NCBI GenBank assembly: GCA_964387705.1
Contig: CAYLWT010000004.1
Location: forward strand, 4,242 to 68,241
DNA from: an uncultured Christensenella sp.
GTDB lineage: Bacteria > Bacillota > Clostridia > Christensenellales > UBA1242
Length of the DNA: 64,000 nucleotides
Reading direction: 5' to 3'
Numbering within the stretch: position 1 is the first letter of the stretch; the number at the start of each line of letters is the position of its first letter. Under the pieces are notes generated by a model. That model worked only from the letters and a program-made list of their open reading frames with translations. It was not told the origin of the DNA and ran no database searches. Made by a program: the position numbers and the translations under genes. Below are positions 39,735-41,394 of this stretch, in pieces.

Positions 39735-40079
39735 TCAAATAACCCCCAAACTTATCATCATTGCCCTGTTAATTTCGTTCATTTTATATTCGCTAAGTTC
39801 CCCTATTTTCCCACGCAATCGCGATTTATCTATCGTTCTAATTTGCTCAAGTAAAACCACTGAATCCTTTTCAAGTCCATACTCCTTTGATGATAGTTCT
39901 ATGTGCGTGGGAATTCGAGATTTGTTAAGTCTACTCGTAATTGCTGCTGCTATAACTGTTGGGCTGTATTTGTTCCCAATGTCATTTTGAACGACAAGCA
40001 CTGGCCGCAATCCTCCCTGCTCACTTCCGACAACTGGACTTAAATCGGCATAATAAAGTTCCCCTCTTTTAACAATCAT
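39735..40079 (-). CDS. ndoA: PemK/MazF family toxin (EndoA-type mRNA interferase)
   Basis: [39 protein letters not shown]...[10 protein letters not shown] is a close match to EndoA. Confidence 0.95.
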
Positions 40080-40252
40080 ACAAAACCCCGTATAAATTTT
40101 TGATAATCAAACACAAACTTTTCCTCAATAATTCTTCCTTCAAAATTCACCGCTTTTTTGCACCAATAATACTTATCAAGACTTTCCCTCACATAAATTG
40201 TATGAGTGCAAATGCAATAATTGTTAACAACAAAAGACGTGTTATCCTTCAT
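40076..40252 (-). CDS. 58-aa ORF translationally coupled to ndoA; candidate antitoxin (not in ORF track)
   Basis: RBS AAGGGG; [58 protein letters not shown]; its TGA overlaps the ndoA ATG (ATGA). Confidence 0.6.
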
Positions 40253-40406
40253 CAAATAATTCCCCTTTTTTGCGAATTTAAAACAACATTTCGAATATAG
40301 TTTGCGAAATGTATGAATTATTATCCTAAAACGAAGGTTCTTAACTCATTTTATTTGTCGTTCTTACAATTTGTGGTACAATGGGTTTAAAGAGTAGGAG
40401 AAAAAT

Positions 40407-40967
40407 ATGTTTTATCATAAATATAACTCACCGCTTGGAATAATTGTAATGCAAAGTGATGGTGAGGTATTAATAGGCTTGTGGTTTGAAAATGGTGTTG
40501 ATAGTGCTAAACTCAATCTAGGAGAAGAAAAGGAACTATTAATTTTTAAAAAAACAGTTAAGTGGCTTGACATATACTTTGGTGGAACGAATCCAAATTT
40601 TATTCCCAAATATAAAATTTTAAATATGACTCCATTTAGAGAGCTAGTTATAAAAATTATAGAAAAAATTCCATATGGAAAAACTATTTCGTATAATGAC
40701 ATCGCGCTTAAAATAGCAAAACAACTTGGAATAAAAAAAATGTCCCCTCAAGCAGTTGGGAATGCTGTGGGGTGGAATCCTATATGTATTATTGTTCCCT
40801 GCCATAGAGTTGTGGGGGCAAATGGGAACCTTACTGGGTATCGGGGTGGACTTAAGAATAAAGTTGAGTTGTTAAGATTAGAGCATAATGATATGAATAA
40901 ATTTAGCATGCCAAAAAATAAAAACAAAATTTCGAATATTGTTCTTAAAAAGACAATTTATAAATAA
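40407..40967 (+). CDS. ogt: Methylated-DNA--protein-cysteine methyltransferase
   Basis: IPYGKTISY, AVGNAVGWNP and IVPCHRV active-site motif; promoter TTGTCG-16-TACAAT. Confidence 0.93.
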   Translation: MFYHKYNSPLGIIVMQSDGEVLIGLWFENGVDSAKLNLGEEKELLIFKKTVKWLDIYFGGTNPNFIPKYKILNMTPFRELVIKIIEKIPYGKTISYNDIALKIAKQLGIKKMSPQAVGNAVGWNPICIIVPCHRVVGANGNLTGYRGGLKNKVELLRLEHNDMNKFSMPKNKNKISNIVLKKTIYK

Positions 40968-40983
40968 TAGTAAAAATAATTAC

Positions 40984-41394
40984 TTAATATAAAATACAAG
41001 TTGAAACTGCAATTTCATCTGAATGAGCAATTGATATATCAAGGTCGTTTGTTCCCAAAATTGGTTCAAGTTTTCCATTTATATCGTTAACATATGGAGC
41101 TCCGTATTCATCATGCAAAATCTCAATATCTTGCAAACAGACCTCTTTTCCAAGGCCAGTTTTAATCGCTTTTGCAACCGCTTCTTTTGCACAAAAAGTG
41201 CCTGCCATATGCACAGCCTTATCGGCGAATTTTTGAAAATAAGCAAGCTCCTTTTCGGTATATATTTTCTCTGGGTGCTTAAATCCTCTAAACCTCACAA
41301 CCATTTCAATATCAGTCCCAACCCTAACTTTGCTATGGTCTTTTACGTGTTCTATCGGGCCTTCAATTTCTTCCAGTTTCTTTAATTTTTTCAT
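40984..41394 (-). CDS. acpS: Holo-ACP synthase
   Basis: VGTDIE, AGTFCAKEAVAKA, GAPYV and SIAHSD motifs. Start moved to ATG 41394 (RBS GGAGG). Confidence 0.9.
   Translation of the reverse strand: MKKLKKLEEIEGPIEHVKDHSKVRVGTDIEMVVRFRGFKHPEKIYTEKELAYFQKFADKAVHMAGTFCAKEAVAKAIKTGLGKEVCLQDIEILHDEYGAPYVNDINGKLEPILGTNDLDISIAHSDEIAVSTCILY

Follow-up and report, generated by a model that had tools for sequence, protein, structure and literature searches.

What restrains the MazF toxin of an uncultured Christensenella sp., when the place of its antitoxin is taken by an open reading frame (ORF) of 58 codons without family classification? The question is raised by a 64,000-nucleotide stretch of contig CAYLWT010000004.1 (positions 4,242 to 68,241 of the forward strand, hereafter the window), in which a gene for a MazF/EndoA endoribonuclease, mazF or ndoA, is directly preceded by the reading frame that we call ORF58. 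The pair had been pointed out in an earlier note made from the sequence alone. In the following it is argued that ORF58 is a genuine gene conserved together with mazF, and that its product is probably the antitoxin of MazF, in which case ORF58-mazF would be a two-gene type II toxin-antitoxin operon. As to its origin, descent from MazE with extreme divergence and replacement of MazE are in our view about evenly balanced.

The two genes

The following features, all on the minus strand, are referred to throughout.

40076..40252, minus strand: ORF58, 58 aa, putative type II antitoxin of a family without classification
39735..40079, minus strand: mazF/ndoA, 114-aa PemK/MazF endoribonuclease toxin, apparently intact
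40261..40267, minus strand: ORF58 Shine-Dalgarno sequence AAGGGGA, its GGGG 9 nt ahead of the ATG
40086..40089, minus strand: mazF Shine-Dalgarno sequence GGGG, within ORF58 codons R55-G56
40202..40225, minus strand: N-motif NNYCICTH, ORF58 codons 10-17 (N-N-Y-C-x3-H), the family's most conserved part
40088..40105, minus strand: C-terminal motif YQKFIR, ORF58 codons 50-55 (Y-[EQ]-x-[WF]-[LIMV]), proposed MazF-binding tail

The mazF product matches the Pfam PemK_toxin family (PF02452) with E=1.9e-37 and 128.2 bits (cut-off 23.1), and its residues 1-114 align without a gap to structures of Bacillus EndoA/MazF (7BXY, E=2e-47; 4ME7_A, E=5e-46), the identity to Bacillus EndoA being 65%; the S. aureus MazF structures (4MZM) are matched with E=3e-46. 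As the alignment to EndoA is gapless over all 114 residues, EndoA numbering transfers to the window protein, which has R at position 25 and T at position 48, the residues that we take to be the catalytic positions of B. subtilis EndoA. No second copy of mazF is found in the 64 kb.

ORF58 starts with an ATG at 40252-40250, preceded one codon upstream by an in-frame TTG at 40255, and its stop codon TGA (40078-40076) shares the sequence ATGA with the mazF start codon (40079-40077). The earlier note was correct about this overlap and about the ribosome-binding site, and likewise in placing the frame in the antitoxin position before an intact mazF. In every locus considered, the last two codons of the ORF (K/R-E, which in relatives is AAG GAG or AGG GAG, but also R-G and E-G) constitute the mazF Shine-Dalgarno sequence. 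ORF58 is translationally coupled to an intact mazF, and it occupies the antitoxin position.

Conservation and selection

Many spurious ORFs of 30-60 aa are present in the window, so that a length of 58 codons is in itself within chance, and we consider ORF58 to be real because of its conservation, its synteny and its ratio of non-synonymous to synonymous substitution rates (dN/dS). The opposite notion, that ORF58 is a chance ORF or the decaying remnant of an EndoAI and that mazF is effectively an orphan, can draw on the absence of any database match for ORF58 and on the fact that gene callers passed over it on the long contigs of this species. The description of the ORF as unannotated indeed holds for the public gene calls on these contigs (L001-L005); in relatives it is called as a hypothetical protein.

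An identical MazF is encoded on 13 metagenome contigs, and among the nine listed, eight carry the whole of ORF58 and one ends inside it; the ORF58 protein is identical throughout the nine same-species contigs, the sole single-nucleotide polymorphism being synonymous. Beyond the species, the MazF search gave more than 100 clusters at 80-97% identity, and the loci of seven MazFs of this clade, six clusters and the GTDB locus L010, were compared. A 57-62-aa ORF that can be aligned to ORF58 adjoins or overlaps mazF in six of the seven, at mazF identities of 97% (L090-L093), 89% (L094-L096), 88% (L106-L108), 84% (L097-L099), 83% (L010) and 81% (L100-L102), and the order recX-acpS-[ORF]-mazF-(trmA-like)-lgt is found in all of these but L010, which is a short contig. 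Reverse look-ups starting from the small protein led to the same arrangement in four cases out of four, since for each of P0133, P0150, P0152 and P0159 a PemK gene follows, either overlapping the small gene or starting 1-5 nt after it. The earlier note had stated that an ORF missing or interrupted in relatives would speak against its proposal, and the homologue is uninterrupted in the six loci and in all four look-ups.

The notion of a remnant or chance ORF is furthermore in poor agreement with the constant length of the uninterrupted frame in relatives in which MazF is 81-89% identical but identity falls to 36-62% for the products of recX, acpS, the trmA-like gene and lgt. Between the window and L090, L091 and L093, dN/dS is 0.22-0.32 for ORF58 versus 0.02-0.04 for mazF, and the comparisons of ORF58 show an excess of third-position changes; dN is 0.11-0.15 versus 0.02-0.03, a non-synonymous rate 5-6 times higher in ORF58, and such faster evolution beside the toxin is the usual pattern of an antitoxin. 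This purifying selection, together with seven residues that are invariant in the core alignments, shows that ORF58 is a functional gene and not a remnant, and the suggestion of a decayed EndoAI that leaves the toxin differently controlled has to be abandoned. With the Shine-Dalgarno sequence and start context conserved as well, we consider a remnant or chance ORF extremely improbable and can conclude that ORF58 is a genuine, conserved, lineage-restricted small-protein gene under purifying selection.

A longer form of the gene was considered and rejected. The 112-aa call upstream of mazF in L090-L092 (nt 2166-2504) contains a spurious N-terminal extension and the real product has 58 aa: the 54 extra N-terminal codons are unconserved intergenic read-through, frame-broken in L093, and what is conserved is the Shine-Dalgarno sequence and the ATG at which the 58-aa form starts.

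The small-protein family

A search of a collection of 5.8 billion proteins with ORF58 as a single sequence gave no match, and the family was found only by way of mazF anchoring and a subsequent alignment-based re-search. The latter yielded 24 clusters of 57-76 aa in the 5.8 billion proteins, none with a Pfam domain, and a HMMER search of 1.84 billion representatives gave 21 matches at E<=1e-3, of which 18 are 52-67 aa long and one is a 110-aa call matching at its C-terminus; the long repetitive proteins P0157 and P0160, also among the 21, were judged spurious. The family is restricted to one group of uncultured gut Clostridia, and the only name found for it in the sources is hypothetical protein (MBQ3214457.1). 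It has no match in Pfam, NCBIfam, PADLOC, PHROGs or the PDB sequences; one member gives weak PHROG matches only (best E=0.027), and the resemblances of the family profile to a Ly6/PLAUR protein (YCxTxHTM, E=0.16) and to a sortase (E=1.4) in the PDB were taken as chance.

The family consensus reads M-x(8-10)-NNYC-x-T-x-HTMNE...KSY-x-x-V-x-KSLF-x-E...F-x-Y-E-K-W-L-x-K-E. N10, N11, Y12, C13, H17, Y28 and Y50 are invariant in the core alignments of 23 and 21 sequences, with F48 nearly so, and four of the seven stay invariant in an alignment of 34 sequences. Possible roles of the N-motif are dimerisation, metal binding, toxin contact or service as a protease tag. The window protein has been described as rich in cysteine and aromatic residues, which is true of its own composition (3 Cys; 12 aromatic residues out of 58, namely 6 F, 5 Y and 1 W), but Cys richness is no family trait, as C13 is the only conserved Cys and C15 and C31 vary. 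With only one Cys and one His invariant, a zinc cluster as a property of the family is ruled out. It has also been considered that the family is a new antitoxin unrelated to MazE, in which Cys13 and His17, which with their i, i+4 spacing would share one helix face, could form an inter-subunit metal (Zn) site or a redox-sensitive site in a dimer or on the toxin. We hold this to be quite improbable; if true, oxidation or loss of the metal would destabilise the antitoxin and release MazF, and a core-genome MazF would have a direct chemical trigger in place of protease-controlled turnover or transcriptional control.

Two sets of loci depart from the common pattern. The subgroup P0141-P0144 / L100-L102 (nt 1326-1499) keeps the N-motif in the form NNFCxxSH and differs in its C-terminal half (...GVHILKSEELSFKE), in which the Y-E-x-W-L tail is missing; the part essential for function may accordingly be the N-motif. 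In L103-L105 (nt 1317-1508), where mazF is 85% identical and the synteny recX-acpS-X-mazF-trmA is kept, X is a different ORF of 63 aa (MKVFVNANLNINGNFGHIMGED...AGVFYD), which the family profile did not retrieve and which is either extremely diverged or the product of a second turnover of the antitoxin slot.

Relation to MazE

A hidden Markov model (HMM) of canonical MazE was built from 32 MazE sequences of related loci, including short forms. When it was run against all frames of the window its best match, with E=0.79, was elsewhere than ORF58, which is unlisted even at E<=50, and it follows that there is no canonical ndoAI within the 64 kb; the earlier note had regarded such a gene elsewhere in the genome as evidence against its proposal. 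ORF58 itself matches nothing in Pfam or NCBIfam and therefore neither a ribbon-helix-helix (RHH) nor an AbrB domain, RHH/CopG matches in Pfam are absent from all 23 family members, and PF04014 (AbrB/SpoVT) is not matched at E<=1 by any member. The reported lack of an RHH or AbrB pattern is thereby upheld by Pfam, NCBIfam and the MazE HMM alike. Furthermore the ORF58-family profile, compared with all PDB sequences, found no MazE, and 4ME7 went undetected.

A faint resemblance emerges when the two families are aligned by hhalign (37 sequences of the ORF58 family, 32 of MazE). Over 27 ungapped columns W30-I54 is set opposite INLxLAE...YExxL, with the match ending at the C-termini of both families, P=0.0095-0.019 and a probability of only 2-4%; 5-6 of 600 column shuffles reach the score. 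The earlier note had compared KFIRGF with the MRRGY segment of EndoAI, which is the wrong register, since the profile comparison places DYQKFI opposite the C-terminal Y-E-x-x-L helix. The 10-residue tail of the window subfamily in particular parallels the EYENWLCGV ending of Clostridium MazE, and the YQKFIR tail may on these alignments be proposed as the equivalent of alpha3, a short helix in B. subtilis MazE. The resemblance is suggestive of a common descent of the ORF58 and MazE tails.

The alternative is that ORF58 is an antitoxin not descended from MazE, a recruited or de novo protein that replaced it in situ by non-orthologous replacement, and that the likeness of the tails is due to convergence on the conserved MazF groove or is a by-product of the shared Shine-Dalgarno sequence. 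This is a serious possibility, although we stop short of calling it probable. It is in agreement with the lack of homology to MazE in the HMM searches, with the fact that the GYxEMAxINLxLA core (GYxEM..INL) of the MazE neutralising segment cannot be recognised in ORF58, and with the fact that the strongest conservation resides in NNYCxxxH, for which MazE has no counterpart. The antitoxin slot moreover seems to turn over, as in L103-L105, the N-terminal regions of MazE vary widely in related Clostridia, and MazF toxins pair with several unrelated antitoxin folds, those of Firmicute chromosomes with "CopG family or uncharacterized antitoxins" (PMC3879964). Replacement is on the other hand made less attractive by the ungapped and co-terminal nature of the profile match (p about 0.01), by the preserved spacing from Y28 to the tail motif, by the close parallel between the window-subfamily tail and that of Clostridium MazE, and by a locus and orientation that are those of canonical mazE.

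More distant relatives of MazF, taken from GTDB genomes at 64-76% identity, are preceded by a variety of ORFs. Some have a full-length RHH-containing MazE of about 90 aa, in others (L011, L012, L019, L027, L052 and L081) the product, of 52-73 aa, is without the RHH and retains GYxEMAxINLxLA...YExxL, and in Clostridium, Soehngenia and Tissierellaceae there are MazE forms with other N-terminal regions. At many of these loci no ORF of 30 aa or more abuts mazF.

Several of these loci deserve mention in their own right. In L030 and L031 (Soehngenia) and L073 (Tissierellaceae) the upstream MazE variants keep the GYxEvSQlNLsLaE segment, and N-termini containing Cys and His (LCNHSEFHCKKY, LCNNGCKCKKY) replace a recognisable RHH pattern; they could be small metal-binding modules. 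In L062, L071, L072, L075, L078, L084 and others, only 100-200 nt separate alr from the mazF that follows it and no ORF of 30 aa or more abuts the toxin gene, and the metagenome-assembled genomes (MAGs) concerned have either an apparent orphan mazF or micro-ORFs that were missed. No antitoxin-sized ORF is present in L033, L036, L046, L022 and L040 (Candidatus Scatosoma and related MAGs), where mazF is 74-76% identical and a leader in the region about 120 nt upstream of it, following a terminator hairpin, is conserved (GTATAA ... TTTACATATAATATAGTAAGGAG ... TTCGGTTTTCAAAAGAGGT-ATG; alignment A6). This leader holds UACAUA, the reported MazF cut site, which could serve self-cleavage or autoregulation, or simply be the promoter -10 element. 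Finally, in the MazF homologue P0006 (147 aa, from an 85-kb ENA contig) about 33 internal residues are repeated in tandem, and this points either to a faulty assembly or to a toxin that has been disrupted.

Proposed mechanism

If ORF58 is the antitoxin of MazF, it would be translated just before the toxin from one mRNA, in a coupled fashion because the last ORF58 codons carry the mazF Shine-Dalgarno sequence and its stop overlaps the mazF start. We infer that ORF58 would bind the MazF dimer directly and neutralise it, a short C-terminal helix (F-x-Y-E/Q-x-W/F-L/I) sitting where the two subunits meet, in the cleft that binds RNA, and MazF would be freed once the antitoxin is degraded or its synthesis halts. 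This geometry would follow that of two known antitoxins, B. subtilis MazE/EndoAI with its C-terminal helices and S. aureus MazE with its residues 23-56. B. subtilis MazE dimerises via its RHH and fills the RNA-binding cleft of the MazF dimer with its C-terminal alpha2 and alpha3 (PMC5086665, PMC6562991), and in S. aureus MazE, an "unusually short" protein of 56 aa whose operon is not autoregulated, residues 23-56 neutralise (PMC4041440). By analogy with S. aureus, autorepression of the ORF58-mazF operon by its antitoxin is probably absent, because ORF58 has no RHH or other recognisable DNA-binding domain. On the side of the toxin, positions 7, 8, 50, 51, 70, 94, 99, 102, 107 and 113 differ consistently between the MazFs of the 80-97% clade, in which the members sampled are paired with the ORF58 family, and those paired with canonical MazE, and these differences, which are concentrated in the C-terminal helix, may reflect co-adaptation with a new antitoxin.

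Structure prediction with AlphaFold2 gave a confidence (pLDDT) of 62.7 for ORF58 (21 sequences), the model having three beta strands plus a helix at 50-54, and of 63.3 for P0133, a more typical member (34 sequences), with helices at 11-21, 28-38 and 53-59. Agreement between them is limited to the short C-terminal helix over Y-E/Q-x-W/F-L/I, the predicted secondary structure is too uncertain to use and speaks for no fold in particular, and a Foldseek search with the low-confidence monomer model gave no match at E<=0.001. ORF58 probably has no stable fold of its own and is largely disordered when alone, as is typical of antitoxins, and low confidence combined with disagreement outside the tail helix is what such models would be expected to give for an antitoxin that folds on binding.

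A number of points weigh against this account of ORF58. The best conserved element is the NNYCxxxH motif and not the tail, and as the P0141-P0144/L100-L102 subgroup keeps the former without having the Y-E-x-W-L tail, the element that contacts the toxin could be N-terminal, which is the chief uncertainty in the mechanism. The two predicted models conflict over residues 11-46, given as beta strands in one and helices in the other. The likeness to MazE is weak and invisible to HMM-to-sequence searches, and the conservation of the tail is inflated by its terminal K/R-E and R-G, which the mazF Shine-Dalgarno sequence imposes; because these codons are that sequence, the conservation of the last two residues is a nucleotide-level one. 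In addition, the search for a canonical MazE covered the 64-kb window, and one may be located elsewhere in the genome.

It may further be argued that ORF58 is real but does not inhibit MazF, serving rather as a modulator of its specificity or stability, or as a coupling upstream ORF that sets mazF expression, in which case control of MazF would fall to an unlinked factor, or MazF would act as a regulatory RNase of high specificity and need no antitoxin. Indeed no antitoxin can be recognised upstream of about a quarter of the mazF genes of Bacillota, and MazF has been argued to be a precise regulator and not a poison (bioRxiv 10.64898/2026.08.06.743204), and the many related Clostridia loci without an abutting ORF fit this notion. 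Seven invariant residues and a dN/dS well below 1 are nevertheless more than a coupling ORF needs, the linkage to mazF is strict and exclusive, and size, position, overlap and faster evolution are together what classically marks a type II antitoxin. Furthermore Bacillus EndoA, with which the window MazF shares 65% identity, inhibits growth if its antitoxin is not expressed along with it (PMC6562991). A role other than inhibition thus seems unlikely, and inhibition of MazF by ORF58 is the reading that we retain.

Comparison with known antitoxins

Functionally ORF58 is most like the short staphylococcal MazE, yet its sequence does not place it in any described MazE family. The two proteins are alike in length (56 versus 58 aa), in lying directly upstream of a Gram-positive MazF of the EndoA subfamily and in having no RHH, and neutralisation by a C-terminal segment that turns helical on the toxin, a feature of S. 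aureus MazE (PMC4041440), is proposed for ORF58 as well. S. aureus MazE however keeps the neutralising segment, in which it is 42% identical to B. subtilis YdcD, whereas ORF58 has no detectable GYxxMAxLNLxLA core and gives no significant match, against canonical profiles, to the toxin-binding segment M64-E83 of YdcD; conversely the invariant NNYCxxxH is missing from S. aureus MazE. The surroundings likewise differ, with recX-acpS upstream and a trmA-like gene downstream of the ORF58 pair, and alr upstream and sigB downstream in S. aureus.

B. subtilis MazE (EndoAI or YdcD, 93 aa; chains E and F of 4ME7) resembles ORF58 in being encoded upstream of an orthologous toxin with acpS upstream on the same strand, and in the weak co-terminal match to the last 27 residues of ORF58, which ends in a short helix Y/V-E-x-x-L. 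It differs in having an N-terminal RHH and in being 35 residues longer, and the ORF58 locus is without alr. The short RHH-less MazE proteins of Clostridia MAGs, such as the 52-aa ORFs of L011 and L012, are similar in length and abut a mazF that is 74-75% identical, but they keep the canonical neutralising segment GYKEMAEINLELA...CEEKLTECE and are plainly MazE, and ORF58 has not kept this segment. E. coli MazE, of AbrB/SpoVT type (PF04014), is also a type II antitoxin of MazF and places a disordered C-terminal tail in the groove of the toxin dimer, but its fold is a different one for which ORF58 has no match, and against B. subtilis MazF it has no neutralising effect (PMC5086665).

Leader and promoter

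One further element lies upstream of the ORF58 Shine-Dalgarno sequence.

40316..40326, minus strand: GGATAATAATT block, likely -10 element of the predicted ORF58-mazF promoter

The GGATAATAATT block is invariant in the window, L090, L091 and L093, and it falls together with a promoter-like sequence, TTAAGA-16-AATAAT (40344..40317), which is a match to consensus only. It opens a leader of about 65-75 nt; over the 75 nt ahead of ORF58 the window and L090-L093 are largely alike, and the block containing the ORF58 Shine-Dalgarno sequence is identical in the window, L090, L091 and L093 save for one A/G difference in an A/G run. The leader also contains a perfect inverted repeat of 8 bp (40286-40293 and 40305-40312; ACATTTCG / CGAAATGT, 11-nt spacer), the 5' arm of which, on the minus strand, overlaps the only UACAU of the region, the core of the B. 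subtilis MazF cleavage site. L090-L093 do not share the repeat, which may be due to chance.

Locus context

Two neighbouring genes complete the description of the locus.

40984..41394, minus strand: acpS (Pfam ACPS), upstream neighbour in the conserved recX-acpS-[ORF]-mazF synteny
40407..40967, plus strand: ogt/MGMT, O6-methylguanine-DNA methyltransferase (Pfam DNA_binding_1 and Methyltransf_1N), context outside the module

The earlier note had appealed to the order acpS-alr-antitoxin-mazF. This is borne out in so far as acpS is found upstream on the same strand, but there is no alr between acpS and mazF or anywhere else in the 64 kb, and ogt/MGMT has been inserted between acpS and ORF58. The insertion is found in this species only, being present in L001-L005 and L008 and absent from L090-L115, and it creates a divergent promoter region of 154 nt common to ogt and ORF58.

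Significance

The understanding of type II systems is not changed by these observations, since short MazE proteins without an RHH, as in S. aureus, and the swapping of antitoxins are already established. Across Bacillota, EndoA-subfamily MazF belongs to the core genome and is an RNase of high sequence specificity, and a survey of 2026 left open how the quarter or so without a recognisable upstream antitoxin is restrained (bioRxiv 10.64898/2026.08.06.743204). If ORF58 acts as we propose, a conserved protein some 60 aa long, which standard annotation misses or calls hypothetical, would close the antitoxin gap in a large lineage of uncultured gut Clostridia, and the family is a concrete candidate for toxin-antitoxin catalogues. 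It would also offer a natural test of the minimal portion of MazE able to neutralise a nearly unchanged toxin, and other mazF genes now called orphans may likewise reflect small ORFs that have been overlooked.

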